Shown in pieces: positions 1 through 27,360 of a stretch of DNA of 32,000 nt (position 1 is the stretch's first letter; each line of letters starts with the position of its first letter). The notes beneath the pieces were generated by a model. That model was not told the DNA's origin, did no database searches, and saw only the letters and a program-made list of their open reading frames with translations. The translations under genes and the position numbers were made by a program. Source of the stretch: Candidatus Fokinia solitaria (lineage in GTDB: Bacteria > Pseudomonadota > Alphaproteobacteria > Rickettsiales > Midichloriaceae); NCBI RefSeq assembly GCF_003072485.1, contig NZ_CP025989.1, positions 540,001 through 572,000 on the forward strand. Reading direction: 5' to 3'.

Positions 1-3000
1 GATTGTTCCATTCCACTAATATCTTTCTCACGCATCTTATACTTAGATGGCATGGTAATCCTCTGTTCTGTAAAGTGACGAACATCACTTAGACAACTTT
101 GAACATTGAATTCCATACTTTTTCTAAATCCATCTCGTACTATGAGCCATATATCATTTTTAACATTCTCATCTTGTCTAAACTCTTTGTTTTGCGCATC
201 AAATATTACATATTTACTAAGTGAAACATATTCTCTTCTCATTACAAAGTTATTATTTATTTGCTCTATCGCTTTCGATTTAGCTACAGCAAATTTCGAC
301 TGCAGCTCTAATAAGAGGATTTTATGCAACTCAAGATTATTAGAGTTAGTAACAGCTCTACCATAAGAAATTTCATTAATGCTATTAATACTGCTATCCA
401 ATTCATCCTCCGCACTTCGTATATCTTTCTCTTCTAGCATTGTCAATTTTCCAATCCTCTGCGCTACAAGTTCTGTTTCAGTGCTTAATTTTTTTAACGC
501 TTCTGCATACTCACTTCCTACTACCATTGCTACGCTGCGCAAATCTCCAATTATACTTGCACCGAAATTAGACACTCTATTATCTACTTCATCACAATCA
601 TCACTATAGCGATTATGGCATAATTCTTTCATCACAGCATATTCAGCGCTGTTCTTTACATCATCTCTAGCAGCAGCAACATAAGATTCGTAAACAGCAA
701 TATCAATTGCATTATTTATAATAAGAGGCGTAATTTTCAAAATCTTCTCATTCAAAGCTTTTGTACTTTTCTCTAATAAACGTTCAACATTATCAAGCGC
801 CTCCATATGCTCTCTATGCGCGAGATATGTCTGCATCTCTCTCACTTTATTGCTAAGTAGCGTATGTATAGTTTGCTTTTTGCTTTCAATTTTTCGAGCA
901 TTCTCTTGCAAAATAAACTGTAGCACCTTTGAATAATTCATAACGCGCTCATCATTAAAAGGTACTACTTTTTCACAAGAATTACCGCTTGGCAGTGTAT
1001 TACCTAAGCTTTCAATCTCTCTCGAGAAAGCAATATACTCGTTCTTTTTGCCACTCCATCCTTTATTTTGACCAATTTCTTCTCTAATAGTCTCCTCTTT
1101 TTTAGAGAGCTGACTCGCTTTCTGCTCTAAATTCTCCAACTTGCGCAACATACTACCACACTGCGCTATAGCACTATCATATTCTCTTACAGCAGAGTAG
1201 TTTACAGTACTCTCATAATTAGATATCGGCTTTAAAAGTCCATCTTGCAATTTTTGCTGATTCTTTGCAATCAGTTCATATTTGTCCTTCACATCATTAT
1301 ACCTCTCAACTTCGACAAGAGACTTTTTATGCCCTTCTAATACCTTCATAATATCAGTAAGGTAAAACTTCTCTAAACGAGATGCTTCAGCAGCAGCACT
1401 TTGTTTTAAAACATTCATATAATACGAAGTACGCAAGTCACTATGCTCAGCTTTAAGTTCAAATTTATAAGACGTAACGTACTCAGTTAGACTTTTAGCT
1501 ACAAGTGCATAAGCCTTCTCCATCTCTTTCCTAAAATAAGATATGTCATCATTGTACATCGATGTAACAAGTTGCCTAATTTTTTGCATACTAATATCTA
1601 ACTCTCCACTCGCTAAATTTCTACCTGCTATAAATTTATTCATATTAGCGTTGGACTTACTGATCATATCTTCCTTCTGCTTTGCGGTCCAATCTCCACT
1701 ACTAGTACGATAAGCTCTATAATCAACGTTATAATAAGAATATACCCAAGAAACAGCTTGTATCATTTCTAAAGAATGCATTCCTATCCCATTCTTCTTT
1801 GCAAAATTAGAAAGTTGTATATAATTATATCTATCAGTCTTAGCCGTCTCTACATCTTCCTTTAACTTTTCACGAAGTTCGGAATCAACTCCTGTAACGC
1901 TATCACTACCTCCTAACGAACTATCAGCATTCAAACTCAAAGGTGCTAACTTTTGTGATAATAGTTCTGTAAACTCTTTCTGCTGAGAAACAACAGTATC
2001 TCTCATCTGCTTAGTATGATACGAGTAATAGTACTCTCTTGCATCTTGCATGTGCTGATACTCCGTTCTAAATGATGAAAGAATATCATCTATTTTAGAT
2101 GAGAACGTCACGTCATTAACTTTATCGATACTCTTCAACTCCTTCTCTAAGTATTCAATCTCTGCCCTTCTCTGTACTATGTGACTTTGTTCGTAATACT
2201 TGATAGCTTCCATCTCACTCTTCTCACTAAGTCTATGCTGTAGCAGCTCATTCAACAAACTGCGATACTTATCTATAGTTTCATGATTCGATGGATCTGC
2301 TTTTTGCATTTCAAAAAGCTTCATTTCTGAAGATAATCTCCATTTTTCTTGTTCGATAAGAACTTTAAATGCTCGCTCTATTACAGAAACTCTTTGTAAG
2401 AGTTCTTGTTCTATACCATCACTAAAGTCTTTCTCATGCGCTCTACATAATTTCATCAAATGATCATTTAAAGCATTTGCTATCGAGATCGCTCTTGCAT
2501 GCTCATTAAAGGCAAGCAAAGGTGCGCTATCGATATTAGCTATAATGCCATTTACATCCAGCGTTCTGCAAGAAATCGTAGCATACTCGCAATCTCCATT
2601 AATTTTACTTATAAGCTGTTGAATGCTAGGGGAATATTTCTCATCCTTTGCAACAAGAGATTGCACGTCTTCATATGATTTAATATTTCCATCTTGCAGC
2701 TCTTTCTTTATATAATTTACAAGCTGTCCCGATAAATTTTGAAGATTTTTAATATCTACGCTCAGTTTTGCAGAGCTCTCATCTTCTGTACGTTGCAATC
2801 TTTTAAAATACTCGTTATCTGCTCCATGTTGCGCTTTATCATCTCTATCCTTGTCGCGCGGAAATGTCTTTTCACAAACAAGTTTCAAAAAGTCTGGAAT
2901 CTTATCGATACCACATTCCTTAGCTTTTTCCTCGGACATCTTTGTGTTCATATCAGCTAATAAGTACTCAACATTATAGCTATTACTGCTTTTCTGTAAC

Positions 3001-6000
3001 TCAATACTAAACGGATATTGTCTTTCTGCAATATTTGCAAAGCCATGAGTACCTTCTACTGGACATGATAAGAAAGCACTATATCCAAACGCCATACTAT
3101 TTTCATTTTTCAAGAATGCAAAAATCGTAGCGTCTGTAGCAGCAAACTCACTCAGTGGAATTGAAGCAGTTTTCAAAGTTCTCAATTCTGCAGCGCCGTC
3201 AGATACAATATCCTTAATTTGTTGCAATTTGCTAATAAGTGCACTCTGTAAGCTTTGTAGTGCTTTATCTGTTTTTCCACCTTCATCAGAGATTAATTGA
3301 ATATTTGATAAATCTAATTTTGCTATAAGCTTCGCTACTGAATCTATGTCATCGAACTTCAGAATATCAACATTAAAGATCTCGTACTTAGACAACGAAG
3401 CAATCATCTTACATACCTTCAAAAATGCACTTAGCGCATCTTCCATTTTTTTAATGTAGTTTATAGAATTCTCTTTCTTATTTGTTTTATAAAGTAATAC
3501 GTTATCTAAAAATTTAATAAAATGAGGATAACTCGCTATCATTTTAGCATCACTAAGTATATTAGCAAAATCCTTGTCAGCTAAAACATCCTTCAAATTT
3601 CCATATATTAGCTCTTCAGCTCGTATATTTATGTGAGTAGTATTAAAATTATTGATATTCTGCGTTACAATCTCCTCTGATAACTGCTCATTCAGCACTT
3701 TTAATTTTTCTTGTCTCTCTGCAATTTGTTTGTCTAAATCTTCTATGATACTGCTATTCTCAGCAGCTTCTGCAGCGGTAATGATATTGCCGTTATTTTC
3801 GCTATACCATTTATCATACACTGCTATCGCTTCATCTATTACTTCTGCGCGCTGCTGAACGGAAAACAGCTCTTCTATCATAGCGTCTCCAATCATCATT
3901 TTAGGATTATATGACGGCTCATTATCCTCTATAATCTTATGTATTGCACTTACCAAACGCGAATCAGCGTTAAACAATTTCAAGAAACTAAATACCTGAC
4001 GCAATACAGTCGTACCTGCTATATCTGAATTTTCTTCTTCTCTTTCTGCAATATACTCAGCAATGCTCTTATCGCGCTGCTCTATATCAAGCTGCAAAAA
4101 TCTTTGAGGAATAACATCAAATTGCTCCAATAATCTTACAAACATCTCTTTTATATCGAGTGCTTTATTATTAGACTCAATGAACATTCTCTCTGCTGAA
4201 GCTGATTGATGCAGGTAGTTCTTCATCTCGGAGTATATAGTGCTCATAAGGCTCACTGGCTCATCGTCTCTTAGATACGACCATATAGTTTTTACTTTGA
4301 ACGATACTGTTTCTAATTTCTTTAACGAATCTGCAGCATCATGTATTTCTTTAGAAAAGTCAGATGAAATAGCTTCATGTGCTATAAGAGATTTCTCCAT
4401 TATATCTACTAACGAGAAAAGATCTTGCGCATTGACCATATCATTATCACCATCAAGATGTTTTGCCATCTCAACCACTAATGAAAATAACTTCTCTACC
4501 TGAGTCTCTATAAAGCGTGAAATATCGCGCTTCATATTTTTTTCAGATTCTTCGCTCTTATATTGTATATTACTTAATCTCTTTTGTAGTGCCGCTCTAT
4601 GAATTGCATTCTCTTCTGAAGGATCGATAAAATAGCTACTAAGATAGTTACTAATACGGCCTATTACCCCAATAGTATCACCTATCTTTGAATCAGTAGC
4701 TTCATAAGAAGCAACTACAGCACGTATTAGCTTTTCTTTCTCTTTATTATTGAGATTGTCATTCAACCACTCGATAGCATCATTATCTTCTTTTGCAACT
4801 ATAGACAAAAGATCTGCAAGACGATACTGCGTATCTCCTAGCGACTTGAGGAAAGCTTCATCATCAATGTCTAGGATATTTACGTCTATATTAGGATTTC
4901 TAATCACATCATCACCTCGTACTTGCGCTTTTTCTAAAGCATCTTTAATTTTATCGAACTCTTCTGCCGTTAGCACGAAATCTTCAAGAAAATCTTCTCC
5001 ATTCGCAACAATTTTCTCTGCGAAAGCACGTAAGAAGCTATAAATATCAGGCATAACTTGATTACGAGCACTAATTCCTATTCGATCTGCGATATCACAT
5101 AACTCATAAGTACTGAGGGATTTGAGAGCACCGATCATCTTCTCCGCAGAAGGAGCTTTGTACGACTGATAACTGTTAAAAATCGCACTGCCAAGAATAT
5201 TCCATTGTTGTTCTGTGACCTTCTGACGTAAGGACGTTATAGCTGCTTTAAATTCCTCTGGTTCTTTCGCTGTCAACGTACCAAGTGAATAATCCACTTC
5301 TTCGGTAACAGATTGCGTTTCTTTATTAAAACGCTTTTGCACTTGCGCTTTGAATGAAGAAGAATCTTTTATAGAAAAATCACCAAGACCAAGCTCTTTA
5401 AATAAAGTAGCAATATCCTTATTAGCACGAACTACACCTAGATGTATTACAGTTCTCAGATTTTTTAATATCTCAGCAGTATTTTCATCGAAATGCTTTT
5501 TATAGTTATTTAATTCACTTTTCGCTTCTGAATACTCGCTCACAGTAGCATATATTCCTCCAAGCGACTGCTGCACTTTTTCGAAATCCTTCACACTTTT
5601 TGATAAAGAATCTCTACGCTTTGTTATTACCTCTACTTCTTTCTCTATTTTCTCTTTTTCTACTTTCGGTATAGCTACTGATTTCTTTAATTTTGCCGCA
5701 AATGAGCGAACAAAGTTATTTTCTACTGTACCTAAAGCATATTTCTCAAAATCTAAAACACCGTCGCGGAAAACATACTCTTTTATATCTTGTATAATTT
5801 GCGCATTATAAACTCCTCCAATTAACGCATCTACTCCAATATCTTCTCTAATGCGATAAATAGCACTCGAGAAAAGGCTTACTACTTCTGTATAATCATC
5901 AGGATTTTTACCTTCATTTCTTAAGAGATTATTACAATAATTACGTACCGCTACTTCATTTTCACTTTTCCAAGATGAACTGATGAATGAAGCTTCTGTA

Positions 6001-9000
6001 TGCGCAAGACATTTAGGGAAAAGTTCAGAGTAATAAAAATATTTTTCAGCAAAATCCTCCATGCTCTTCATATCGTATCTTTCGCTGATCGCTGCAAATG
6101 CAATAGTTTGCAACGGTATATACTCAGGAACGATCTCATTCGCACCTTCTAACAAATTAGATTCTTTTGCACTAACTATAAAGCGTGCATATTGCTCTTT
6201 CAAAAGCGCGACAAACATTTCTGCAATATCGGCTTGCTTCATATCTAATTTTTGCGTTACGTACTCTTTAAATTCATCGAAAATACCTTGTAAAGCTCCT
6301 AATCCAAATACTTGACTTAGCACTTGATCTTTTACTAAGAAAGCATGCATAGAAGATATATCACCAAACTGCTCAGCTGAAATATTACTTAATTTCTCGC
6401 TCAGATAATCATGAATACGTTTTACACTAGATTTAGATAATTTCTCTGGTACAAAAATTTCATTCCATTCAACACACTGCATTTCAGCAAGTAACGCTTC
6501 AATACGCTGCATTTCGTTACTATTCGCTCTGTCTTGATATTTCATAATATTACCATTTCTCAAAGAGCAAGATACGAAATTGGTCAATACTTGAGCAGCA
6601 AGCTGTTGAGAAAGTGAAATTTCTACATCCACTTCCAATAGTGGCGCCATAAACGCCTTATTGATATCACTGACATGTAAAGATACAGCATTTGAGAATA
6701 AACGCGCTGACGAATGATGTTGTATCACTGTATCAGTAAAAGCATTCTTAATAGCACTAAGATCGTTTACGATACTAGATAATTTCTCTTCTAAAATTTG
6801 AAGTGATAGCTTGCCTCCATGTGCTTCTTGCAGTGCATTGATACTTATACCTTCTCTACCTGTAGCAGCAATAGATAACTGATTAACGACAACAATGAAA
6901 AGATCTATCTTCTCTCTTGTCGTAGCATCAGAACGCGAATATGTGGAGAATATAGTATGCGCAAATTCCGAAATTACATCTTTCATTCCGAAGTGAGACG
7001 GAATCATCTTTCCTAATCTTTCTCTGAAAGACTCTGTATTAGGAAACTCCTCTGCACCTAGCTTATGCACTACATCTGCAATATTTTGCCAGAAAGCTTC
7101 TACGATAGAATTGGAATTTCTTTCGATCGCTTCTTCAAGTTTTACATCACTATCATCGCTAAAATCACTGCTATTCTTCAGAGCATTGAGAACACCATCA
7201 AAATCATGATGCCATTTACCATACGTTTTCTTCAACTCATTTCCATATTTCTCATACTCTTTACTGTTCACCATGCTTAAGTATGCCATTTTTACTATCT
7301 CACTAAATGACATATACTTTCCTGCTGCGTACGAATCCGATATCGTACGGTATTGCTTCGTAAAAGTATTCCACCAATGTTCTCTATCTAGCGTAGGCTT
7401 ATTAAACCAATTATTTCGCAAGTAGTTATCTTTGATATTTTTAAGAGTTTTAAAATTCTGCAGCTTATCATTTTCTGACAAAGTGCTATTTTCACTATCA
7501 TATTTCAACAAGTATCCTACTAAGACTTTCAACTCATTAGCTATTTGATGAGTATTTTCTATTTCTCGTACTACAACTCCTTGGTGGATCAAATCTGTAA
7601 TTTTCTTTTGTACTTCAGTTCTTATGCTAATTAAAAAGTCATTCTCAGTAATATAATCTTTACCAAAAACCTCTTTTACTATGCTAGATATCTTATCTTT
7701 ACTTTCATTCGCGAAGGATACGCTACCTCTTGCTGCAGTTTCTACCTCTCTTATGTCCAAATAACGAAATGCATCTGTCATAAATTTTAGAGCTTGGCGC
7801 ATGATTTCGCTGTAATATTTTCCTGGCAAAGCAAGTTTTTTGAGAGCTGTTGCTAAGTTTATATAATCTACAAATCTATTTTGGAAAACAGTTTTGCTTT
7901 CTTTTGACGTAACATTCAAACCAAACATTCCAGCAGTATGAATACTTAAAGCACGAAATTCTGCTGCATCTTCTACTAATAATCTGGCATTTTTCTCAAA
8001 ATTCGCCAATTCCTTATATATTTCATCTCTTGCGCCAATGAAGAAACGTTTCATTTCTGCCTCACTTAGTGAAGCTCCACCTAATGTTTTCTTCCATTCA
8101 TCTAAGGTATTATAAGTCGCACTTACTTTCGAAGTTAAGGCATTTCCCGCTAAATCTTCTATAGTGCTATCATAAATTTTACTGATATTATCCATCGCAT
8201 CGCTGATGAAATTTCGTACTCCAACATTTGTGCTGGTAGTAGATAATAGAACAGCTTCTACGATAGAAGGAGAATCTTTAGCAGGTACCGCAAAGAAGGA
8301 CGTTAAAGCTTTAGCAAAAAGCTTATCTGCTGGAGTTCTATTTTTATCGTCTTGTAAAAGAGGAAACGATGCACTATGAGATAACTGCGACGTAACGCCA
8401 AAGATTGATAAATCTGTATCTGACATCGTAGCTGACGCTCTATAGCCTGTTAAAGCACGAGGAAGCTCTTCTAAGAAAAGCACATCATTAGCTTTATCGT
8501 TTATCACTTCCATAAATTCTGCTTTCGTATTCCTTCTTCCTTGCCCCGATTCAAGTGCATTAAAAGCATCATAAGCAGATAATTGCATCAACTCTTTGTT
8601 GTATAAAAACTGATATTGCAAGGCTTCGTAAGCATCATAAAACGATAAAGACTTTATCTCTTTAAAAAGCGGATATTTTAAAAGCTCTTCCTGTGATTGG
8701 ATAAAATTCTTACCATTTACAGCATCTCTGTAAGATATGAGACTTTGAAGCATCTCTCTTTCTTTCACTAAAGCAGGGTTAAGCTCTTGCAATAAAGATT
8801 CAATTAGCTCATTAGCGCTATTCGCATATTTGCGATGCTCTTCCGTAATAGGAGATAACTTTTTCATAGTCCCCTTTATATCTTTTAGATATCTTGCTAC
8901 AAAAACGTTGCCTCGAGAAAGATTCTGAGAAAGATCTTTCCAGAATTTAGTAACTTGCTCTTCGAATTGCTGTAAATCAACATTAAAGATCGTAACAAGC

Positions 9001-12000: not shown

Positions 12001-15000
12001 CTTCTTATACTATTTGCTTCAAGTATAAGCGCAGCTTCTACAGCATCGTAATTTCTCTTAATATTACCTATCGCTATCTTCATCTGATTCTCTTGAGTAG
12101 AAATAAAACTATTCATCTCCACTTTTAAAGCTTCCATTTCCTTTAGCGCTTCCTTAGTTTCGAAAGCTTCATACTCACTAAATTCCTTCATCTTTGAAAC
12201 ATAATTTTCAAAAGGTTCAAGGGCAAGCTTCACGCTATTAGATTCTGTTAAAGGAGCAAAGTTGAAATTTTGAAATTTCAAGCTTTTGAAAAGCTCTTTC
12301 ATAGATATATCAGTTATCGCTTTCTGAAATTCAGCATAAATCTTCACAACATTCTCTCTCCATTCACGAATCTCAACTTTTATATAAAGATTTTTGAGTT
12401 TTACATCAATTGCGGTAGTAGCCTTATCCAATGCATCTCTGGAAAGTGCAATTTTAGACGACAAATCTTCGATTTTCGCTTCTGATGAGAATTTATGTAA
12501 TTTTCGCTCTATAGCTTCAACTTTTCTTTTAAATACAGCATCCCATTTGCTTATAGCGCTCTTTTCAGCTTCTAAAACTTTAATATGAACTTTATGATTC
12601 CTTACATGCTCAGAAGTGATTCTTAAGTTAGTACTGATAACTTCACGCAAGTTGAAGCCTTTCGTATCTTCTGCTACATCTCTTCCATCGTCAATATAAC
12701 GTAATAACGCATATAGCTCTTTTCCAATTTCATGAAGTTCAGTGGTAGCAAAACCAAAAATATCTAAATTTTTGTAATACTTCTCAGATAATTCGTATAC
12801 ATCTGCAATTTTAGAATCACATCCTAAGCTTTCATTATTCGAAAAACATGATATTTGACGTAATTCTTGTGCACTTTTAAGTTTATTATCTGCAATAAAT
12901 TTCTCTCTGACTTGCTTCACTCTACCCTTTGCTTGTTGAAACCACATAGCGATCATAGAGGTAGCGCTAAAATCTTTGATTAATGTTTTCTTAAAAAGAT
13001 CGAGTTCTTGCGCTAACTTACCACTATCCTGTAACTCTATTATGTATGAAGCATACTGCGCAACCTCTAATTCTCCTCTACTCTTTTCTATTACTACTTC
13101 GATAGGTGCGTATAATTTATCTTTCATCCCAGCTTTATAAGATGAAATACTCTTATGCAATTCTTCTAATGATTTTCTGTGCAATATACTTCCTCCTATT
13201 GAAGATGGCTTTAGTATCGATGATAAAACACCTCCTTCGTTATCGCTTTGCGATTGCTCAGATGCTCCTAATTGCCCATTCAAGAGTCTGACATGAGCTT
13301 CTATTTTCTCCAATAGAGTATCCGCCTGCTCTTGAGAATTAAGACTATCTTCTTGCAAAATATCTCTTAATGTATCATCTCCACTTTGAACTCTCTCTTC
13401 AAGAATAGAATACCAGCGCGCTTTTTTATCCATAACAATAGAAAGAGCATCACTGCGTGAAAGAACCTCTTCAAGCGTCTCTTCAAATTCCTTTAATACC
13501 GCAATTTTATCTCCTAATTCTCGTTTTTTGCTTTCATAATCTTCTACTTTATGTGCTGTAGCTTTTTGCTCTTCCAAATAATTTTTCAGTCTCTCATCTG
13601 TTATCAAAAGCGCATCTTTAGTGATATTTGCAAAAAATACATCATTCATCAAAGAAGATAAACTAGCCTCTGCTTCCTTTAATTTGATATCAAATTGTTC
13701 TTGGGTATTTTCTAGCAATTTACTGAGAGCTGCTATCTCTTTTTCTTTTTCATGTAACTCACTCGATGAATACGGAATAACTGCTAAAAGTCTTAACGAT
13801 TCAACTTTATCTCTCTGAGAAATTAATTCTTTCTGCGTATCTTCGATTGCTTTCTTAAAGTCTTCAACAACTCTATCGCGCACTTCTCCCAGAGCACTCA
13901 TGCACACATTGAAGTTATTGATAACAGATAACCCTAAATCAGCAGCTGCAACACTGCCATATATCATCTGTGCTCTATGAATTTGCTCAACATTATCGAC
14001 TCTAAGTTCAATATCACCAAGTACATCCATATTATAAGATTTCCACTTTTTAATACTCTGCAAAAGCTCTTTTTCTCTCTCTACCAAGTTATATTGCGCA
14101 ATTAAAGATGTTCGTTCATCTGCAAGTGTCTTAGCTATTCTATCTGCGTCATGCTGATCTTCCACTCCTTTTGAAAGAGATTCATCCTGTTTAATCAACT
14201 CATAAGCTTCCTTGATTAATAAAGCATTCACCTGTATTGCATCCTTCCGATATTCAAAGATTTCTTCTTCTATAGAAATGAAATCTCCAAACTGCTCTAC
14301 ATGCAATTTTTCATTTAATAATGCATCTTGCACACTTTGCCACATAGTGCCATTTATCGCTGCTTTTTCGAGATTTGACATCTCTATGTTGAATTTCTCA
14401 GCTTCTACGGGATAGCGCAATACATGTTGCCACAATTTCTCTCCTATCTCTTTTTTATTACTTATGCCACTAATTATCTTCTTTATTCTATGGAATTTTT
14501 CACTTTCTTCATTAGTGAAGAATTCTTGTATAACGTCTATCATCGATCTCGTTATATAGCCGGTAGCACTGAATGACATTACGCCTTCTTCAGTAACAAG
14601 ATCGCCTAATGCTGCATTTATATCCTCTTTTGAACATCTACTCTGTTCATCTTTACATTCGATAAACAACGCTTCTAATTTCTCCGTAGCTTTAATTCTC
14701 TTACTTTTCTCAGCATCTATTGCTTTATCAAAAATAGCTATAGCTTTTGGCTGAAGTGTATATACTAGTTCATCAAATTCATCATGTAATCCTATAATAT
14801 CGTCAACGTTTGTTTTATGTAAAAGTGCTATCAATTTATTATAGAGTTCCTTACTTTCTTTATTTGCTTTCCACCAATTTCCCTCTAAAAGCGACTTTAC
14901 TTTATTATCTACATTAGCTAAATAACCATAAAAATGCGTACGAACTACATCAGAGAATGAGTTACCTATAGCAGCCTCTTTCGAATGAGATACTGTATAT

Positions 15001-16499: not shown

Positions 16500-19400
16500 C
16501 TCCAACTCAGAATTCATTACATCGCTTCCTCTTGATAGCTCTTTTCCTGTAGCGATTTCTATCAATTTACTCTTATAAAGATATCCACTGCCATTATCAT
16601 TAGGAAATTTCACCTTTCCAAAATATTTCTTCGTATCTTCGATCTCAATATTAGAAGGCACTACTGAAGTATTGTATCGTGTATATAACTGCGTTACGAC
16701 ATCATCATCTACTGAGAACAGTTGTATATTTTTTTGCTCCATTACAAATAAGAGATGTTTCACTCTACCACTGTCTTTCAGATGAGATACAAAAACATCA
16801 TACTCGGCATCACCTATAACGAGTTTTACTCGCTTATACTGCAACAGTGCAGCACTAATATCTAATGTAGTACTTTCAGTAATAATACTGTCAAGTATTT
16901 TATAGAAATCATCATGCTGTACACTAAAATCTCTGCTGCTAAAACGACTATCACCAATAATTACTGTACCTCGCGTAACATTACTCTCAAATAAATTAGA
17001 CTTAACGTATTCTTCATCGCCTACAACGACAATAGCATCTTCGATATTGAAAAGACCGTCCTTTCTGTAATACGTATTACGCGAAGAAATCTCTAATCCA
17101 AGAAATTTTTTCACACCACCTTTTACAATGCCGTTCAAATCGCCTAGCACTGCATAAGCACTGCTTGCTAAAGCCTTATCTGATACTTTTTTCACTTCTC
17201 TTCTATTGGCAACATCAGAAAATACTACATAAAAGTCCTCTTCATTATTTTCAAAAACCAAATACACATTTCTTTCGTCTTTTTCATATTCATTAAGCGA
17301 AAATTTCAATGCAAGTTGCTTATTAGAAACAGCATAACATACGACGTCTTTGATATTATGCAAAATAAAAGCACCTCCAATACCTTTTAGTATTTCTGCT
17401 ATTTCTTTACTTAATACGTGAACATTTGGTTTTCTATCCATTAGCCACTCTAAATCCATAGCAGAAAGCTGTCCATCTGCGACTTTAGCAAAGCCCATAA
17501 TAACATCATCACTAAAGTCGTCTACTTTACCAGATAATGCATTAACTTCATTGGTAAATGCTAAATTTTCAGAATATTGAACTTTAGCTCCTTTCTCTAC
17601 TTTACCATTATTAATGATATAACAATCTACATCCTGTGACTCTCTGAAAAGCATCACTGCATGCTCAACACTATCAGCATTGATAACAATTACATAAGAA
17701 TCTTTGTTATCCACAGTATTAGTATATTTGAGCACTTTATAAGCTCCTACAGTAATTCCGAATTTTTTACTGAAAACATCTACTATGAAATGATTCATAT
17801 CTTCTAAAAATTTTTCCTTTTCTATCTCACTAATCTTATCATCAAGATCGCTTTGCCTAAATTCTGAATATACCATACCGTTAATAAGGCTTATTATTGC
17901 ATCATTTGTCGCAAAAGAACGCGGTATGTTTAGCACGTGATCTGGTTCTCCGATAAATTGAACCATCTTGCTGGAAATAACATCATCTACATAATGCTGC
18001 ACTTTTCCAGCGTCATCGATATAATATAAACCTCTACCACCTTCCTCATCTGATATATGCATGATTGATTCATTTTGAGTCATTCCGCTCTCACTTCCAG
18101 AATGAGATATTACAATAATACGCACAGTACCGCTTTCGATAATAAGATGCGCAAAGCTTTCTCCCTCAAATTTTCCAAATTTGCCATTCTCCTTACTTCT
18201 GTCTACTATTTCTGATAAAATACGCTCATTGTCAGACTTTTGCACAAAAATAAGATCTTCTTGAGTATCTTGAGAAATACCGTTATCCGCAGCATCTTCA
18301 AATTCAGAAGGATTTTCATCTCCTCCTACTTCTGATGTAGTATGATTGTAATTAGACTCTTGCTCGAAAGTAGGTTTTTGCTCAGTATCTTGGAAAGTAC
18401 CGTTATTCGCAGCATCTTCAAATTTAGAAGGATTTTCATCTCCCCCTACTTCTGATGTAATATTGTAATTAGACTCTTGCTCGAAAGTAGGTTTTTGCTC
18501 AGTATCTTGGAAAGTATCGTTATTCGCAGCATTTTCAAATTCAGAAGAATTCTTATATCTTCCTACTTCTGATGTAATATTGTAATTAGACTCTTGCTCG
18601 AAAGTAGGTTTTTGCTCAGTATCTTGGAAAGTACCGTTATTCGCAGCATCTTCAAATTCAGAAGAATTCTTATATCTTCCTACTTCTGATGTAATATTGT
18701 AATTAGACTCTTGCTCGAAAGTAGGTTTTTGCTCAGTATCTTGGAAAGTACCGTTATTCGCAGCATCTTCAAATTCAGAAGAATTCTTATATCTTCCTAC
18801 TTCTGATGTAATATTGTAATTAGACTCTTCCTCAGAAATAAATTCTTCTTCAGTACCTTGGAACTCTTCCTCAGGAATAAATTTTTCTTCAGCACCTTGA
18901 GAAATACCGTTATTCGCAGCATTTTCAAATTCAGAAGAATTCTTATCTCCTCCTACTTCTGATGTAATATTGTAATTAGACTCTTGCTCGAAAGTAGGTT
19001 TTTGCTCAGTACCTTGGAACTCTTCCTCAGAAATAAATTCTTCTTCAGTACCTTGGAACTCTTCCTCAGAAATAAATTCTTCTTCAGTACCTTGAAAAAT
19101 ACCGTTATTCGCAGCATCTTCAAATTCAGAAGGATCAATACTACCAATTGATTGCGTCTCCTCTAAATCCAGGTGTCCAATAGCAAAATTTATCACTGCT
19201 CTTCTACCATCATCAGTACTCATCATGTCGTACTCTGTAGGAAGATCTTTAGATTCAACACAAAAAGAACGTAGATTGAATGTAAGTTCTACAGCGCCTA
19301 CTAACTGCACTGCATTATCATCAGCATGATATAACGTATACCCTGACGCATCTTTAGAAATTAAGAATAAATCATCAATTACATATAACTGAGTAGTAGT

Positions 19401-21050
19401 CTTCGAATGAGAAGCAGTATTCTTAATAAATACACATCGTAATTCTGCATTAAAAACTTCTATACCAGCCTTCTCACATAATTGACGATAGAAATCTCTA
19501 TAACGCTCTTCATCACCTTCCTTCCTATTACTAACCTCTCTTTCATCTTCAGTAATATAATGAATAAGCTCTTCATCACTTTGCTTTTTACTCTCAACAT
19601 CCTCTCTCCTACCAACATTCTCTCTTCTTTTATTATCAGCACTTTCATTAGTAATATCTAATTCAAATAAACTTGTAATAAAGCTCTCAGACATTAGCGA
19701 TATTTCTTCTGTTTTCGCAGTAAAGAAAGGAATTTTTGAATGAGGCGATTTAGAGGAATAACATCCATCACCACAGTGAGTACTAGCGCTCTTAAGCTCT
19801 ATAACAGGCTGACCATTATTCTCTGTAACATAATACGCAGTATAATGATCATCTTTAGTAAACATGATAATCAACTTGCTATCATTACCTACATTGATAT
19901 TTAAAGTCCAAGCAATAGCGGTATGATCACTTTGCTCTACCACTTTAACAATATAGTAATCGCTTAATTTTACAGAACTATCCTTTTTAAAATCTTCAAG
20001 TGCACTTTTTATAAATTCTCGATATTCAATATCTTGAAAATATAATTCAATTGAAGCACCTTTTCTCTTCAGCCGAGGTAATGACAATAATTGAGAAGGT
20101 TTAAAATCATGAGTAGTAAAATCTAATTTTTCATCAACAAAATACACGTCGGACAAAGAGATATTATAGCCAAAGAATTCTTGATCCTTTCCTTTTTTTA
20201 TCGCCTCCCAAAAAGCAAAATTCCACAAATTTTCTACATCATCCTTGAAACTTCCTAAAGAATCATATTCTCGATCATATGCTGTTATAACTTCATCATC
20301 TTTTATTGAAGTTGCTACTATCGTAAACTTCTCTTTATCGTTTCGAGAAAAGATTAAATACAAATCCTTCGAAATTTCTGTGCTAAGTCTAACTGCTATA
20401 AAATTAGCTTCAATACTTGAAAATATATAATGCGATACAGATTTGAGCGACTTCTTAATATCTAATTCTTTAGCAATTTCAGTAATAATATCATTTTTTG
20501 GCAGTGGCTCTTTCTGCATATTCCCTCCTTCTATCATATTTACATCTAAAGCCTCTGCTTCTACATATTTAAGCGAAACACCTTCAAAAACCATCTTAGG
20601 AAGATAAGAAGGGATTCGGCCAATATCGCCTTTTCCTCTTACTTCTAAGAGCTCCTGCTGATTAAATTCTTTTATCAATTCCGCGTATGTAGCGTCAAAA
20701 TCTTTTGCATATTTTAGCAAGAACGCCTGTTCGATCTTCTCTTCACTCGCATAGTACGGTGCAATATTCTTTTTTCCGATTTCTACTATAAAGTACCCAT
20801 GCTCATCACGAGCAATCGCGTAGTACGATTCTTTAAATCCGCTACTAGTCTTATTTTCATCTTTAGATTTGCTACTCTCATCTATATATTTCACAAACTT
20901 CACATCTTCTTCCGGAAGAGAATCCATCGTAAAATTCACCCCTCTTTCTTCATATCGCTCTTTAAGTTTCTTCAAAAGCGAATCACTAAAAGGTAATTTT
21001 CTCAAATGTTCATCACCAAAAGAAGAGTCATTCTTCGTATGCTGTGTCAT
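1..21050 (-). CDS. Giant protein of unrecognised family, with at least 7,016 codons inside the window; its C-terminus lies beyond the left edge
   Basis: The start is ATG at 21050-21048 (reverse complement), with an in-frame upstream TGA at 21101-21099. Hand translation begins MTQHTKNDSSFGDEHLR. Minus-strand codons occupy plus positions 3n..3n+2. I checked this frame by hand and found it stop-free at 3-59, 5040-5081, 10500-10559, 15000-15041, 17571-17639, 18000-18191, 18600-18719, 19008-19046, 19302-19349, 19740-19928 and 21000-21050. Any in-frame stop inside the window would create a complete ORF of 60 aa or more starting at 21050. The track would list such an ORF, and it does not. The only minus-strand ORFs listed in this span (18953..19147, 19460..19648) are in a different frame. 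Confidence 0.88.
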   Translation of the reverse strand, partial: MTQHTKNDSSFGDEHLRKLPFSDSLLKKLKERYEERGVNFTMDSLPEEDVKFVKYIDESSKSKDENKTSSGFKESYYAIARDEHGYFIVEIGKKNIAPYYASEEKIEQAFLLKYAKDFDATYAELIKEFNQQELLEVRGKGDIGRIPSYLPKMVFEGVSLKYVEAEALDVNMIEGGNMQKEPLPKNDIITEIAKELDIKKSLKSVSHYIFSSIEANFIAVRLSTEISKDLYLIFSRNDKEKFTIVATSIKDDEVITAYDREYDSLGSFKDDVENLWNFAFWEAIKKGKDQEFFGYNISLSDVYFVDEKLDFTTHDFKPSQLLSLPRLKRKGASIELYFQDIEYREFIKSALEDFKKDSSVKLSDYYIVKVVEQSDHTAIAWTLNINVGNDSKLIIMFTKDDHYTAYYVTENNGQPVIELKSASTHCGDGCYSSKSPHSKIPFFTAKTEEISLMSESFITSLFELDITNESADNKRRENVGRREDVESKKQSDEELIHYITEDEREVSNRKEGDEERYRDFYRQLCEKAGIEVFNAELRCVFIKNTASHSKTTTQLYVIDDLFLISKDASGYTLYHADDNAVQLVGAVELTFNLRSFCVESKDLPTEYDMMSTDDGRRAVINFAIGHLDLEETQSIGSIDPSEFEDAANNGIFQGTEEEFISEEEFQGTEEEFISEEEFQGTEQKPTFEQESNYNITSEVGGDKNSSEFENAANNGISQGAEEKFIPEEEFQGTEEEFISEEESNYNITSEVGRYKNSSEFEDAANNGTFQDTEQKPTFEQESNYNITSEVGRYKNSSEFEDAANNGTFQDTEQKPTFEQESNYNITSEVGRYKNSSEFENAANNDTFQDTEQKPTFEQESNYNITSEVGGDENPSKFEDAANNGTFQDTEQKPTFEQESNYNHTTSEVGGDENPSEFEDAADNGISQDTQEDLIFVQKSDNERILSEIVDRSKENGKFGKFEGESFAHLIIESGTVRIIVISHSGSESGMTQNESIMHISDEEGGRGLYYIDDAGKVQHYVDDVISSKMVQFIGEPDHVLNIPRSFATNDAIISLINGMVYSEFRQSDLDDKISEIEKEKFLEDMNHFIVDVFSKKFGITVGAYKVLKYTNTVDNKDSYVIVINADSVEHAVMLFRESQDVDCYIINNGKVEKGAKVQYSENLAFTNEVNALSGKVDDFSDDVIMGFAKVADGQLSAMDLEWLMDRKPNVHVLSKEIAEILKGIGGAFILHNIKDVVCYAVSNKQLALKFSLNEYEKDERNVYLVFENNEEDFYVVFSDVANRREVKKVSDKALASSAYAVLGDLNGIVKGGVKKFLGLEISSRNTYYRKDGLFNIEDAIVVVGDEEYVKSNLFESNVTRGTVIIGDSRFSSRDFSVQHDDFYKILDSIITESTTLDISAALLQYKRVKLVIGDAEYDVFVSHLKDSGRVKHLLFVMEQKNIQLFSVDDDVVTQLYTRYNTSVVPSNIEIEDTKKYFGKVKFPNDNGSGYLYKSKLIEIATGKELSRGSDVMNSELEQYIMESEEFSAEMKSARASLFDALSSAEVTFGNLIKKEKAKEGASEFEIVLLAQLLQFLKAALDIEMYVYHKVKLASSELEKASKANLAMIQTVSDSFSEFYSTLNKGISFKGTLSGSVYRENAALFAKLFDKITSFSQYDEYLNKRIALEKKFSTLQDSSFVSSDAVNLYDVSEESLKELIALFGKNRKDASFVQSTSLKVNLEFALNGYFTGSANIENERNSVALRDLVNVLEEQSEQKILDLETLLKTISRTALNGIVIVERSGKKEMLSSTFPRKALIGEILQWAADAETFCKAIAGYTTSKISSVRQEVLKIVEKFTMEVYEFKRLEEFFKEAEFPSYKGIQAIQDLSHSSYEKDEQLRKKVDSLLKAGESELKAKCQFIIEVGQRINHLANSNIFVKDEQCISWNDATSDITFDGYFVKVKEEYLSIMIKKLQDIIITWSKKSDEFVKMKENIDEQVQYIEAKKIFEDLQEQFTTTEEEFFNKIKNHDKRHGIKYTVSHSKEAAIGNSFSDVVRTHFYGYLANVDNKVKSLLEGNWWKANKESKELYNKLIALLHKTNVDDIIGLHDEFDELVYTLQPKAIAIFDKAIDAEKSKRIKATEKLEALFIECKDEQSRCSKEDINAALGDLVTEEGVMSFSATGYITRSMIDVIQEFFTNEESEKFHRIKKIISGISNKKEIGEKLWQHVLRYPVEAEKFNIEMSNLEKAAINGTMWQSVQDALLNEKLHVEQFGDFISIEEEIFEYRKDAIQVNALLIKEAYELIKQDESLSKGVEDQHDADRIAKTLADERTSLIAQYNLVEREKELLQSIKKWKSYNMDVLGDIELRVDNVEQIHRAQMIYGSVAAADLGLSVINNFNVCMSALGEVRDRVVEDFKKAIEDTQKELISQRDKVESLRLLAVIPYSSSELHEKEKEIAALSKLLENTQEQFDIKLKEAEASLSSLMNDVFFANITKDALLITDERLKNYLEEQKATAHKVEDYESKKRELGDKIAVLKEFEETLEEVLSRSDALSIVMDKKARWYSILEERVQSGDDTLRDILQEDSLNSQEQADTLLEKIEAHVRLLNGQLGASEQSQSDNEGGVLSSILKPSSIGGSILHRKSLEELHKSISSYKAGMKDKLYAPIEVVIEKSRGELEVAQYASYIIELQDSGKLAQELDLFKKTLIKDFSATSMIAMWFQQAKGRVKQVREKFIADNKLKSAQELRQISCFSNNESLGCDSKIADVYELSEKYYKNLDIFGFATTELHEIGKELYALLRYIDDGRDVAEDTKGFNLREVISTNLRITSEHVRNHKVHIKVLEAEKSAISKWDAVFKRKVEAIERKLHKFSSEAKIEDLSSKIALSRDALDKATTAIDVKLKNLYIKVEIREWRENVVKIYAEFQKAITDISMKELFKSLKFQNFNFAPLTESNSVKLALEPFENYVSKMKEFSEYEAFETKEALKEMEALKVEMNSFISTQENQMKIAIGNIKRNYDAVEAALILEANSIRSALLASLEKYDQDVLLMERGDIIELVNKEQNKIASAFNSNKERFTALLGKIKDEIEEINYKRYVNEVAYNEDMSDSIKELITAYSNILKAKIDDLSIGSLIDNLEHSYTKLSHLQLKNEARVLLNEYQKKKAKLILDGVRSGEKNIYTTIHNEYVLVLEKVQNIQAQFEKNLKSVGNMLPDSALYQKFDVNDAIISLAREDVLISEQIAVELKNELLEQEQNLPLQLSHNLIFAELRQQILDEGRRCSGNDRESFADYIRQKCISKTIFNFSQFKKYDNGAVCDVSDVKFDSSELALYDYTGYRLHYAKEMQKVVNSFIQRKDNIDSVLSNLFDKSNADIITPAALKDLLLKKEINESEAYEVIIGIVDKAAERYSVFDITFVLSMAQRVLYDRLSRSVEDINKLIQNYSLLFTSHPSYEKEKAIFDESVQKLENAWKDSSYSKDGLILRKEVESLYSYLKEGDSASSHVWPYKSDQEICERLLLALRDKEETSDAIIQYLGKLGLSENKNLVVKEALTNWFSSDRKQVALDKLFLVLWASIDSGDRYREYIIQAEMDLVERYVKKVYSGNSAVVELVKDKAFKAIKQSQSATSKKEASKKEIQYKYDSISPEEKWMCVKISEKVTSLQNSYKAWKGNSVKVDDTLWNDPLFSTIASNVSRAALLTDLNFADKLAASKAILSDTDVANMRSEFSALEDKLIHTLPEKVMKMIKEKEQLEKILQIMKHVIQFTTAEDSSSVKAFINQVDLYISGGVATISDIYHGIVDRYKESELMILVNKSNRATIERVIKEFEQVLQAKKSDIINEAVPFLKAAVADDGSILNSTSTVLKEISNDKTNPSFNMRFEAIRDALTTDKSVVDLGKLAEGKSIINSYLDSISNEIFSFQERSKLLNSYISVLEDRQENAKILLNTLQSSIDINAVNNNWNEAAEFLQNLKQIIANGRKSNSEGLLEDLRKFVDSTYVAKDNQAGATELLKGVRELIADGEQYSESRLLKELEALVTIFNVDLQQFEEQVTKFWKDLSQNLSRGNVFVARYLKDIKGTMKKLSPITEEHRKYANSANELIESLLQELNPALVKEREMLQSLISYRDAVNGKNFIQSQEELLKYPLFKEIKSLSFYDAYEALQYQFLYNKELMQLSAYDAFNALESGQGRRNTKAEFMEVINDKANDVLFLEELPRALTGYRASATMSDTDLSIFGVTSQLSHSASFPLLQDDKNRTPADKLFAKALTSFFAVPAKDSPSIVEAVLLSTTSTNVGVRNFISDAMDNISKIYDSTIEDLAGNALTSKVSATYNTLDEWKKTLGGASLSEAEMKRFFIGARDEIYKELANFEKNARLLVEDAAEFRALSIHTAGMFGLNVTSKESKTVFQNRFVDYINLATALKKLALPGKYYSEIMRQALKFMTDAFRYLDIREVETAARGSVSFANESKDKISSIVKEVFGKDYITENDFLISIRTEVQKKITDLIHQGVVVREIENTHQIANELKVLVGYLLKYDSENSTLSENDKLQNFKTLKNIKDNYLRNNWFNKPTLDREHWWNTFTKQYRTISDSYAAGKYMSFSEIVKMAYLSMVNSKEYEKYGNELKKTYGKWHHDFDGVLNALKNSSDFSDDSDVKLEEAIERNSNSIVEAFWQNIADVVHKLGAEEFPNTESFRERLGKMIPSHFGMKDVISEFAHTIFSTYSRSDATTREKIDLFIVVVNQLSIAATGREGISINALQEAHGGKLSLQILEEKLSSIVNDLSAIKNAFTDTVIQHHSSARLFSNAVSLHVSDINKAFMAPLLEVDVEISLSQQLAAQVLTNFVSCSLRNGNIMKYQDRANSNEMQRIEALLAEMQCVEWNEIFVPEKLSKSSVKRIHDYLSEKLSNISAEQFGDISSMHAFLVKDQVLSQVFGLGALQGIFDEFKEYVTQKLDMKQADIAEMFVALLKEQYARFIVSAKESNLLEGANEIVPEYIPLQTIAFAAISERYDMKSMEDFAEKYFYYSELFPKCLAHTEASFISSSWKSENEVAVRNYCNNLLRNEGKNPDDYTEVVSLFSSAIYRIREDIGVDALIGGVYNAQIIQDIKEYVFRDGVLDFEKYALGTVENNFVRSFAAKLKKSVAIPKVEKEKIEKEVEVITKRRDSLSKSVKDFEKVQQSLGGIYATVSEYSEAKSELNNYKKHFDENTAEILKNLRTVIHLGVVRANKDIATLFKELGLGDFSIKDSSSFKAQVQKRFNKETQSVTEEVDYSLGTLTAKEPEEFKAAITSLRQKVTEQQWNILGSAIFNSYQSYKAPSAEKMIGALKSLSTYELCDIADRIGISARNQVMPDIYSFLRAFAEKIVANGEDFLEDFVLTAEEFDKIKDALEKAQVRGDDVIRNPNIDVNILDIDDEAFLKSLGDTQYRLADLLSIVAKEDNDAIEWLNDNLNNKEKEKLIRAVVASYEATDSKIGDTIGVIGRISNYLSSYFIDPSEENAIHRAALQKRLSNIQYKSEESEKNMKRDISRFIETQVEKLFSLVVEMAKHLDGDNDMVNAQDLFSLVDIMEKSLIAHEAISSDFSKEIHDAADSLKKLETVSFKVKTIWSYLRDDEPVSLMSTIYSEMKNYLHQSASAERMFIESNNKALDIKEMFVRLLEQFDVIPQRFLQLDIEQRDKSIAEYIAEREEENSDIAGTTVLRQVFSFLKLFNADSRLVSAIHKIIEDNEPSYNPKMMIGDAMIEELFSVQQRAEVIDEAIAVYDKWYSENNGNIITAAEAAENSSIIEDLDKQIAERQEKLKVLNEQLSEEIVTQNINNFNTTHINIRAEELIYGNLKDVLADKDFANILSDAKMIASYPHFIKFLDNVLLYKTNKKENSINYIKKMEDALSAFLKVCKMIASLSKYEIFNVDILKFDDIDSVAKLIAKLDLSNIQLISDEGGKTDKALQSLQSALISKLQQIKDIVSDGAAELRTLKTASIPLSEFAATDATIFAFLKNENSMAFGYSAFLSCPVEGTHGFANIAERQYPFSIELQKSSNSYNVEYLLADMNTKMSEEKAKECGIDKIPDFLKLVCEKTFPRDKDRDDKAQHGADNEYFKRLQRTEDESSAKLSVDIKNLQNLSGQLVNYIKKELQDGNIKSYEDVQSLVAKDEKYSPSIQQLISKINGDCEYATISCRTLDVNGIIANIDSAPLLAFNEHARAISIANALNDHLMKLCRAHEKDFSDGIEQELLQRVSVIERAFKVLIEQEKWRLSSEMKLFEMQKADPSNHETIDKYRSLLNELLQHRLSEKSEMEAIKYYEQSHIVQRRAEIEYLEKELKSIDKVNDVTFSSKIDDILSSFRTEYQHMQDAREYYYSYHTKQMRDTVVSQQKEFTELLSQKLAPLSLNADSSLGGSDSVTGVDSELREKLKEDVETAKTDRYNYIQLSNFAKKNGIGMHSLEMIQAVSWVYSYYNVDYRAYRTSSGDWTAKQKEDMISKSNANMNKFIAGRNLASGELDISMQKIRQLVTSMYNDDISYFRKEMEKAYALVAKSLTEYVTSYKFELKAEHSDLRTSYYMNVLKQSAAAEASRLEKFYLTDIMKVLEGHKKSLVEVERYNDVKDKYELIAKNQQKLQDGLLKPISNYESTVNYSAVREYDSAIAQCGSMLRKLENLEQKASQLSKKEETIREEIGQNKGWSGKKNEYIAFSREIESLGNTLPSGNSCEKVVPFNDERVMNYSKVLQFILQENARKIESKKQTIHTLLSNKVREMQTYLAHREHMEALDNVERLLEKSTKALNEKILKITPLIINNAIDIAVYESYVAAARDDVKNSAEYAVMKELCHNRYSDDCDEVDNRVSNFGASIIGDLRSVAMVVGSEYAEALKKLSTETELVAQRIGKLTMLEEKDIRSAEDELDSSINSINEISYGRAVTNSNNLELHKILLLELQSKFAVAKSKAIEQINNNFVMRREYVSLSKYVIFDAQNKEFRQDENVKNDIWLIVRDGFRKSMEFNVQSCLSDVRHFTEQRITMPSKYKMREKDISGMEQ
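16500..18263 (-). other. Giant protein aa ~930-1517: second block of beta-hairpin-like modules (head, part 2)
   Basis: Three stretches were translated by hand. ENGKFGKFEGESFAHLIIESGTVRIIVISHSGSESGMTQNESIM lies at 18060-18191, MHISDEEGGRGLYYIDDAGKV at 18000-18062 and SQDVDCYIINNGKVEKGAKVQYS at 17571-17639. They share the motif of an aromatic strand followed by an Asp/Asn-Gly turn seen in head part 1. Confidence 0.45.
18264..19135 (-). repeat. In-frame nested tandem-repeat array inside the giant CDS: five 117-bp units, one 120-bp variant and three 39-bp units, encoding acidic 39-aa and 13-aa repeats
   Basis: The anchor motif ag(t/c)a(t/c)ctt recurs at plus positions 18264, 18384, 18501, 18618, 18735, 18852, 18891, 19008, 19047 and 19086. 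The spacings are 120, 117, 117, 117, 117, 39, 117, 39 and 39 bp. The 39-aa unit, translated from 18600-18719, is EQESNYNITSEVGRYKNSSEFEDAANNGTFQDTEQKPTF. The 13-aa unit, from 19008-19046, is EEEFISEEEFQGT. Units 18501-18617 and 18618-18734 differ at only 2 of 117 nt. Confidence 0.92.
19136..21050 (-). other. Giant protein aa ~1-638: hydrophilic N-terminus with no Sec signal or TM segment, followed by beta-strand-like modules (head, part 1)
   Basis: Two stretches were translated by hand. DHTAIAWTLNINVGNDSKLIIMFTKDDHYTAYYVTENNGQPVI lies at 19800-19928 and ASGYTLYHADDNAVQL at 19302-19349. Both show alternating hydrophobic strands followed by Asp/Asn/Gly turns. The first 17 residues are charged or polar. 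Confidence 0.45.
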
Positions 21051-21354
21051 TGCTTTTTGCAAATGTGTATCAAAAGTATCAAGAGGATAGTACCATAATC
21101 ACCGATCTAACACATTACATTTTTTCACATTTTTCTTTACTAAAGTGCAGGTAGTGTTAATTTTAGAATAAATCGCAACTATCTAATGCATTATTTCGCT
21201 ATATAATTCGACTTCATACTTTATTCGAGCCATTAAGAAGTAGTATTTATATCACTCTCTTATCTTTCAAAAATCTCTCTATTTCAAACAAAGCAAGTTA
21301 AAAAGCATTCTGATTATGAACATCTTTTCGCATCCATATTCTTAGTATATATCA

Positions 21355-27218: not shown

Positions 27219-27360
27219 AATAGCTTTGCACTCGATTGTTTACTTATATCATTCATTAGTTAACATAAAATATTGCAATAAGACTAAGTAATCACTAGAA
27301 TCGATCATAGTCGTATGGAGTCTCGTATCAACTCCATCTAACATTACTTTGTTTTTCAAC

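Follow-up and report, generated by a model that had tools for sequence, protein, structure and literature searches.

A giant orphan protein of Candidatus Fokinia solitaria and its counterpart in Fokinia crypta

The stretch of DNA analyzed here (the window: 32,000 nucleotides, positions 540,001 to 572,000 of contig NZ_CP025989.1) comes from Candidatus Fokinia solitaria, a Midichloriaceae (Rickettsiales) endosymbiont of Paramecium, whose genome has a GC content of 35.8% and was the smallest in the Rickettsiales at the time of its publication (PMC5905368). From position 21050 down to the left edge of the window, the minus strand carries the greater part of one intact gene, Fsol_00512, which codes for a 7,555-residue protein; this gene fills two thirds of the window. 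The comparison with its counterpart in Candidatus Fokinia crypta (cryptica) indicates that this is a real, selected and fast-evolving gene. The protein is undescribed and uncharacterized, falls outside every known family and is unusual among giant bacterial proteins in its architecture. The data favor a product that would be non-enzymatic and structural in nature; our best guess, to which we assign a probability of roughly 0.45, is a structural or scaffold protein that is exported and acts at the host interface.

A single intact gene with an ortholog in Fokinia crypta

The minus-strand frame that opens with the ATG at 21050 runs to position 3 through 7,016 codons without a single TAA, TAG or TGA (translation tables 11 and 4). 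This is the uninterrupted frame that an initial annotation of the window had proposed, with the expectation that a recount of stops would give zero. The nearest in-frame stop upstream of the ATG is the TGA at 21101-21099. Given a stop probability of 0.085 per codon, calculated from the base composition of the strand, 7,016 stop-free codons would arise by chance with a probability of ~1e-269, and each of the remaining five frames across 1-21050 contains 235-941 stops, with the longest open runs spanning 50-124 codons. A listing of open reading frames (ORFs) shows just 22 short ones (61-97 aa) in this region; the giant is missing from it because the listing skips ORFs that run off the window edge, as the initial annotation had reasoned.

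The translated 7,016 residues are identical (100% match) to residues 1-7016 of Fsol_00512, a 7,555-aa "hypothetical protein" of F. solitaria. Hence, the window holds the first 93% of the coding sequence, and the true stop lies 539 codons (1,617 nt and the stop codon) past the left edge. This identity, together with the colinear counterpart in F. crypta, bears out the view that the region is one gene rather than several. The complete gene of 22,668 nt accounts for 2.7% of a genome of 837,348 bp, which is indeed small and AT-rich as had been surmised, and specifies an acidic protein of 862 kDa (pI 5.06, net charge -299). The position-specific GC content of the frame follows the order GC1>GC2>GC3 (0.457/0.304/0.263), as it does in the neighboring genes, and its relative synonymous codon usage correlates with that of the other genes in the window (r=0.89); along the entire length, both are as in a native coding sequence. 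We also considered a transfer from the ciliate host. Paramecium reads TAA and TAG as Gln, and we reject this origin given the lack of in-frame TAA or TAG codons and the native codon usage.

The claim that the protein is novel stands in part. A literature search found no paper that discusses Fsol_00512 and the gene falls in no known family, but the ORF itself is not new, being already annotated in GenBank as the hypothetical protein Fsol_00512, and a full-length ortholog exists. The paper describing the F. solitaria genome makes no mention of the gene (PMC5905368).

Residues 1-635 were searched exhaustively with phmmer against 1.84 billion representative proteins (E<=1e-3), and exactly two proteins were matched: Fsol_00512 itself and a 7,997-aa protein of F. 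crypta (E=1e-90; WPX98059.1 / WP_323722035.1). No other Rickettsiales homolog of these N-terminal 635 residues was detected in that search. As far as searched, the protein appears to be restricted to the genus, a statement that is firm for the N-terminal 635 aa and rests on curated libraries elsewhere. Scans of the locus across genome and metagenome contigs returned no relatives, a result of little weight since the Fokinia genomes themselves were not recovered in them, and tblastn against plasmids and phages gave nothing. The F. crypta gene makes up 2.9% of an 815,586-bp chromosome, and its product is labeled "synaptonemal complex protein 1" in GenBank and "hypothetical protein" in RefSeq. The former label finds no support: there is no match to the Pfam SCP-1 family at E<=1 in F. 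solitaria or at E<=0.01 in F. crypta, and long heptad stretches are scarce.

From clpX to the giant, the window and the F. crypta locus share one gene order, clpX-sdr-brnQ-trbC-orf-rpiB-orf-rseP-bamA-giant; in the latter locus, small unannotated ORFs of 51-76 aa occur downstream of the giant and tsaD, nusB and rpmB lie on its 3' side. The high-scoring segments recovered by blastp are colinear, covering F. solitaria residues 2-487 (32% identity), 955-3939 (38%), 4033-5209 (46%) and 5307-7548 (31%), and a MAFFT alignment of the two giants gives 37.2% identity over 7,260 columns. The F. crypta protein is a true, syntenic, full-length ortholog: it occupies the same locus after bamA, is colinear from residue 2 to the C-terminus and is likewise divided into head, linker, helical body and C-terminal module. 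It differs in being only 37% identical, in the duplication of its N-terminal unit, in linker repeats that are Ser/Thr/Asn-rich instead of acidic, and in an extra perfect 28-aa duplication. In the case of the N-terminal unit, residues 2-487 of the F. solitaria protein match residues 22-526 of the F. crypta protein, residues 7-428 match 673-1097, and residues 365-659 match 1161-1436 (25%), the last corresponding to a partial third copy of the head. Between the two ~430-aa copies of F. crypta (aa 22-526 and 673-1097) lie Ser/Thr/Asn-rich repeats (periods 27, 54 and 174 nt), and the 28-aa unit is a perfect 84-nt tandem duplication in a variable region of the helical body. In coordinates of the F. 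crypta locus (L001), these repeat and duplication regions lie at 10001-14300, 11575-11999 and 26864-27035.

The two giants have diverged rapidly under constraint. By the Nei-Gojobori method (NG86), the nonsynonymous rate (dN) is 0.555 and the synonymous rate (dS) ~1.35, giving an omega of ~0.41, and the lowest dN, 0.365 (omega ~0.28), is seen in the core at aa 4101-5100; as dS is near saturation in all genes, these omega values are rough and probably overestimates. The dN of the giant is 3-5x that of the neighboring housekeeping genes (0.10-0.19). The neighboring proteins are 74-92% identical between the two species, and only the product of orf377 (33.5%) is as divergent as the giant. Identity between the giant orthologs by codon position is highest at the second and lowest at the third (2nd>1st>3rd, 0.646/0.547/0.492). 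Among residue types, conservation is greatest for Trp (0.76) and Cys (0.70), followed by Tyr, Phe and Leu (range 0.54-0.76), with polar residues at 0.21-0.38. The latter distribution is that of a folded protein under structural constraint, and the substitution patterns by codon position and residue type together point to purifying selection. With two frames of 7,500-8,000 codons both open although they differ at 63% of residues, neither can be a relic or an artefact.

Domain architecture and searches for known families

We predict a layout consisting of a beta-rich modular head of ~1,500 aa that is interrupted by a linker, a helical region of ~6,000 aa and a beta-rich end of ~80 aa (Table 1). 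The N-terminal unit of the head occurs as a single copy in F. solitaria and as two copies and a partial third in F. crypta. Between-species conservation in the head has a periodicity of 2.3-2.5 residues, and an AlphaFold2 (AF2) model built from a three-sequence alignment shows helix and beta-meander subdomains at low confidence (pLDDT 48.7). The modules D-G of the second block show weak reciprocal similarity to each other, and an AF2 model of aa 940-2139, computed without homologs, has mixed strands and helices, again at low confidence (pLDDT 33.5). Foldseek searches with the AF2 models against PDB gave no match better than E=0.03 (TM-score ~0.1).

The linker that separates the two blocks is built from a unit of 39 aa (117 nt; NSSEFEDAANNGTFQDTEQKPTFEQESNYNITSEVGRYK) along with 13-aa sub-repeats (EEFQGTEEEFISE). 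Tandem Repeats Finder (TRF) places the array at 18264-19097 (period 117, 5.1 copies, 94% matches), in agreement with a self-comparison by blastp, and the region is strongly acidic, with net charges of -37 and -21 for the two consecutive 150-aa bins that make up aa 601-900. In F. crypta, this position is taken by an unrelated array rich in Ser, Thr and Asn. The repeat arrays are thus lineage-specific and, with copies 94% identical in DNA, recently expanded, and the linker is a spacer that turns over rapidly and is presumably disordered.

The body shows a spectral peak at 3.64 residues for hydrophobicity and at 3.57 residues for between-species conservation. Its hydrophobicity is anticorrelated between residues two positions apart and positively correlated at spacings of 3, 4 and 7, and its combined Gly and Pro content is 4.4%. 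Beyond ~aa 1400, comparing the profile with itself reveals no internal repeat at a probability above 5%. On these results, the body is predicted to be an amphipathic helical region of ~6,000 residues that is non-repetitive and has one conserved face. Long regular heptads are infrequent: ~5% of 35-aa windows pass a loose score versus 1.8% in a shuffled control, and a single segment (aa 7209-7250) passes the strict one. This suggests that the body may resemble a solenoid or a set of packed bundles rather than a single extended coiled coil. The conservation of its core peaks in the motifs NFVSCSLRxGNIMKYQD...RIEALLxEMxCVEW, with invariant Cys, His and Trp residues. The C-terminal ~80 residues are beta-rich and conserved. 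As the initial annotation had noted, there is no signal peptide, the N-terminus (MTQHTKNDSSFGDEHLRK) being hydrophilic, and no transmembrane (TM)-like segment (maximum 19-residue Kyte-Doolittle mean 1.53).

Searches of overlapping tiles of both orthologs against Pfam, NCBIfam, PADLOC and PHROGs yielded no family that reaches its cut-off, and sequence and profile searches of PDB gave nothing credible. No nucleotide-binding or catalytic motif (Walker A, HExxH, CxxC or the like) occupies corresponding positions in the alignment of the two proteins. The absences reported from inspection of the letters (nonribosomal peptide synthetase (NRPS), polyketide synthase (PKS), RTX, ankyrin and autotransporter domains) were confirmed with Pfam and NCBIfam. 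Condensation, adenylation, ketosynthase, acyltransferase and carrier domains are lacking in overlapping 1,000-aa tiles; neither ortholog has a match to the RTX nonapeptide (GGxGxDxUx), and Pfam returns no HemolysinCabind. There is no LapG-type TAAG site in either protein, and LPxTG is not conserved. No arrays of Ig-like, cadherin-like or other beta tandem domains are found in Pfam, and there are no repeats beyond ~aa 1400. RHS, FHA, CPD, toxin or other effector domains are likewise missing from both orthologs in Pfam and NCBIfam. The haemagglutination activity domain of two-partner secretion (TPS) is not detected by Pfam in aa 1-1000 (E<=1), and no DUF490/AsmA domain or N-terminal membrane anchor is present (Pfam, NCBIfam, Kyte-Doolittle maximum as above). 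In the C-terminal 50 residues, the amino acids L, D, A, V, T, S, I and F make up 56% versus 54% protein-wide, so that a composition test for type I secretion is non-discriminating.

A resemblance to the B subunit of the heat-labile enterotoxin IIB (LT-IIB) was seen below threshold at aa ~6140-6200 (~2451-2633, minus strand; L001 ~29650-29854). Only the F. crypta ortholog shows it in Pfam, with 23.9 bits where the cut-off is 25 (PDB profile E=0.78), and the segment has three invariant Cys. This resemblance is probably due to chance.

Possible functions and competing explanations

We favor a host-facing structural role because a fast turnover of sequence is combined with a strictly kept full-length frame and with conserved buried aromatic and hydrophobic positions. 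That the protein might be exported is suggested by its rate relative to that of its neighbors, the lineage-specific repeats, the head duplication, the acidity, the lack of a membrane anchor and the precedent of type I secretion: type I systems export the largest bacterial proteins known to be secreted, and the acidic tandem-repeat proteins (TRPs) of the Anaplasmataceae, the sister family of the Midichloriaceae, are type I-secreted effectors. Under this proposal, the giant would leave the cell without a Sec signal, most plausibly C-terminus-first via a type I system. The rvh type IV secretion system (T4SS) would be a less plausible route; a TrbC/VirB2 gene in the window attests to the presence of a T4SS. 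Once outside, the protein could form a coat, tether or spacer where bacterium and host meet, with the variable head and repeat region contacting host components and the helical body supplying length, reach or surface.

Certain comparisons make such a role easier to envisage. The giant type I-secreted adhesins and toxins LapA, SiiE, MpIBP and MARTX are, like Fsol_00512, hundreds of kDa to >1 MDa in size, acidic and poor in Cys, lack a Sec signal and combine a folded N-terminal region with a long extender and a C-terminal segment that possibly carries the signal. However, these proteins own many beta-rich tandem domains (BIg, cadherin-like) and Ca-binding RTX nonapeptides, whereas Fsol_00512 has no RTX, Ig-like repeats or TAAG site, and its body is helical and non-repetitive. 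The linker recalls Ehrlichia TRP32, TRP47 and TRP120 (Anaplasmataceae), which have acidic, Ser/Thr/Glu-rich, species-specific and near-identical tandem repeats. The TRPs are ~200-550 aa long and consist mostly of repeats; in Fsol_00512 the repeats form a linker of ~4% of 7,555 aa, and there is no sequence similarity between them.

Several observations weigh against an exported role. No secretion signal was identified: the C-terminal composition is uninformative, and there are no RTX repeats and no TAAG site. The AF2 models (pLDDT 33.5 and 48.7) are unusable for the fold, and an 862-kDa substrate would, to our knowledge, be unprecedented for a T4SS. Structural proteins of the coiled-coil type also evolve fast intracellularly, and rate alone does not show export. 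Transmission electron microscopy (TEM) of F. solitaria revealed a ribosome-free rim of fine fibrils and a tail, the composition of which was left unexplained (PMC4701390). A link of this rim and tail to the giant is suggestive, though speculation; F. cryptica has the gene yet inhabits a symbiontophorous vacuole without a halo (PMC5118934), so that the gene does not track the rim of F. solitaria. Of the roles offered by the initial annotation (effector, scaffold or fiber), the data favor a non-enzymatic structural protein; the role itself is one we infer.

The absence of any signal peptide, TM segment or recognizable secretion signal is equally what would be expected of a cytoplasmic structural protein that is never exported, such as a cytoskeleton-like filament, a shape or length ruler, or a nucleoid or division scaffold, the helical body making bundles or rods inside a cell of 1.2 x 0.3 um. 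We regard this, the main competing explanation, as possible though doubtful. The ~6,000 residues of amphipathic helix with a conserved buried face would suit it, as would the presence of the gene in both Fokinia species despite their vacuolar versus naked niches, which fits a cell-autonomous role; in addition, the upstream region is conserved like those of housekeeping genes, and both species are similar tiny rods (PMC4701390, PMC5118934). The coiled-coil-rich bacterial cytoskeletal proteins HMW2, Scy/FilP and Ccrp and the eukaryotic SCP1 are likewise helix-rich, acidic, fast-evolving and without enzymatic motifs. They are, however, 5-20x smaller and dominated by regular heptads, and the long regular heptads expected of coiled-coil filaments are rare in Fsol_00512. 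The staphylococcal giant surface protein Ebh/GSSP and the spectrin and plakin rods are very long and made of alpha-helical bundles instead of a continuous coiled coil, and the periodicity and scarcity of heptads in Fsol_00512 would suit such bundles; yet profiles see obvious arrays of ~100-126-aa domains in these and none over 6,000 aa of Fsol_00512, which also differs from such rods in being without an LPxTG or TM anchor. A dN of 3-5x that of the neighbors and the lineage-specific head copy number and repeats are more typical of interface proteins. Moreover, with no other Rickettsiales homolog of the N-terminal 635 aa detected, any role of this kind would have to be genus-specific.

If the exported protein carried an activity, it could be a secreted toxin of giant size, or an effector that bears an enzyme, comparable to polymorphic toxins or MARTX, in which the module is too divergent to be recognized and the helical body serves in delivery or translocation. 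The conserved C-terminal module of ~80 aa, the well-conserved 1,000-aa core with its invariant Cys, His and Trp, the sub-threshold LT-IIB resemblance in the F. crypta ortholog and the small ORFs downstream of the giant in that species are in line with this, but we consider it improbable: no toxin, RHS, FHA, RTX, CPD or effector domain occurs in either ortholog, no catalytic motif falls at matching alignment positions, the F. solitaria tile yields no LT-IIB signal at E<=1, and there is no evidence for an immunity gene, the ORFs downstream in F. crypta being only unannotated ones of 51-76 aa and the corresponding F. solitaria region lying beyond the window. Two other explanations are effectively excluded. 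In both species the giant follows a same-strand gene of the Omp85 family at a distance of 304 nt, which raises the prospect of a TpsA-like exoprotein or a TamB-like partner of the Omp85 protein. The upstream protein, with five POTRA domains where TpsB has two, a position after rseP that matches the canonical bamA cluster and 79% conservation, is BamA rather than TpsB or TamA, and the giant lacks a Sec signal, a TPS or DUF490/AsmA domain and a TM anchor and is helical, not beta-helical. The lack of functional annotation and the very high rate of protein evolution might likewise suggest a non-functional relic, an assembly artefact or several genes misread as one. This is contradicted by 7,555 and 7,997 open codons in two independently assembled genomes with 63% of aligned residues different, by the signs of purifying selection at codon positions and residue types and by the conserved start context; reduced genomes, moreover, shed unused DNA quickly.

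A more radical version of the structural interpretation, and in our view a rather unlikely one, is that Fsol_00512 would represent a previously unrecognized class of protein: a ~0.86-MDa non-repetitive, helical, non-enzymatic giant that two of the smallest Rickettsiales genomes have kept across speciation because it builds a dedicated macromolecular structure, with nothing comparable known in other bacteria. The structure could be the ribosome-excluding fibrillar coat and tail of F. solitaria; alternatively, it could serve inside the cell as a ruler or skeleton. Nearly all giant bacterial proteins that we know of are repeat arrays or megasynthases, and ~6,000 helical residues without a detectable internal repeat make Fsol_00512 in any case unusual for protein evolution.

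The coding investment is large. A single orphan gene takes up 2.7-2.9% of the DNA in two Fokinia genomes of ~0.82-0.84 Mb, and making one copy of the protein is as costly as making ~25 average proteins. Reduced endosymbiont genomes lose unneeded DNA quickly, and because the frame has stayed intact through 63% amino-acid divergence in such genomes, the protein is likely to be central to the biology of the genus. It is a strong candidate for a key structural or host-interaction factor of Fokinia. The genome paper found no pili or adhesins and left the interaction of symbiont and host open (PMC5905368); the giant is an obvious candidate for mediating it, or else for making up the fibrillar rim that TEM revealed.

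The upstream leader and the neighboring genes

The conserved block that immediately precedes the giant (Table 1) spans 95 nt; its best 60-nt window is 92% identical between the species, and the remaining intergenic sequence 56%. It contains the direct repeat TTGATAC-N4-TGATAC. Neither a strong sigma-70 consensus, nor a clear -35/-10 pair, nor a Shine-Dalgarno sequence could be resolved in the leader, and a promoter scan found sites to be no more numerous than in shuffled sequence. The promoter-proximal regions of the housekeeping neighbors show conservation equal to that of the giant's leader. Across the intergenic regions at 21051-21145, 23986-24291, 27219-27348 and 30315-30411, the 60-95 nt adjoining most start codons are 87-95% identical despite near-saturated synonymous sites. 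These blocks look like conserved promoters or leaders and are a possible source of Fokinia regulatory motifs.

Table 1. Features of the window, with the subdivisions of the giant gene
Feature	Position	Strand	Remarks
Fsol_00512 coding sequence, codons 1-7016 of 7,555	3..21050	-	stop-free; identical to the database protein; colinear with the ortholog
N-terminal head unit, aa 1-435, predicted alpha/beta modules	19746..21050	-	blastp, three-sequence alignment, low-confidence AF2
Acidic tandem-repeat linker, aa 636-948	18207..19145	-	TRF, self-blastp
Second predicted alpha/beta module block, aa 949-1500, modules D-G	16551..18206	-	39-54% identity with F. crypta
Predicted non-repetitive alpha-helical body, aa 1501-7016 in the window	3..16550	-	continues to ~aa 7470
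Most conserved core, aa 4101-5100	5751..8750	-	43-61% identity per 100 aa
Conserved 5' leader/promoter-proximal block	21051..21145	-	immediately precedes the ATG; 85% identical between the species
bamA	21355-23985	-	Omp85 family; five POTRA repeats and barrel
rseP	24292-25296
orf377, orphan	25569-26702	-	between rpiB and rseP
rpiB	26790-27218
Small conserved ORF, 84 aa	27349-27603	+	68% identical in F. crypta
TrbC/VirB2 pilin	28022-28378	+	Pfam E=2e-16
brnQ-like transporter	28370-29518		convergent with the TrbC/VirB2 pilin gene
Short-chain dehydrogenase/reductase (SDR)	29589-30314
clpX	30412-31677	+

The window contains no tRNA and no Rfam family. BamA has 876 aa in F. solitaria and 845 aa in F. 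crypta, with 79% identity between them. The product of orf377 is a second fast-evolving orphan of the window: it belongs to no Pfam family, and the 381-aa ORF that occupies the corresponding place in F. crypta shares 33.5% identity with it (dN 0.72). Conservation upstream of orf377 is lower than upstream of the other genes, reaching 0.63 in the best 60-nt window. The TrbC/VirB2 pilin gene is a stray piece of the rvh T4SS, and it shares its last 9 nt with the convergent brnQ-like gene. Upstream of it lies the 84-aa ORF, the product of which has a signal-peptide-like N-terminus and a Thr/Ser-rich tail. The GC skew of the plus strand is strongly negative from 1 to ~30 kb and positive from 30 to 32 kb, the change coinciding with the switch from minus-strand genes to the plus-strand clpX.

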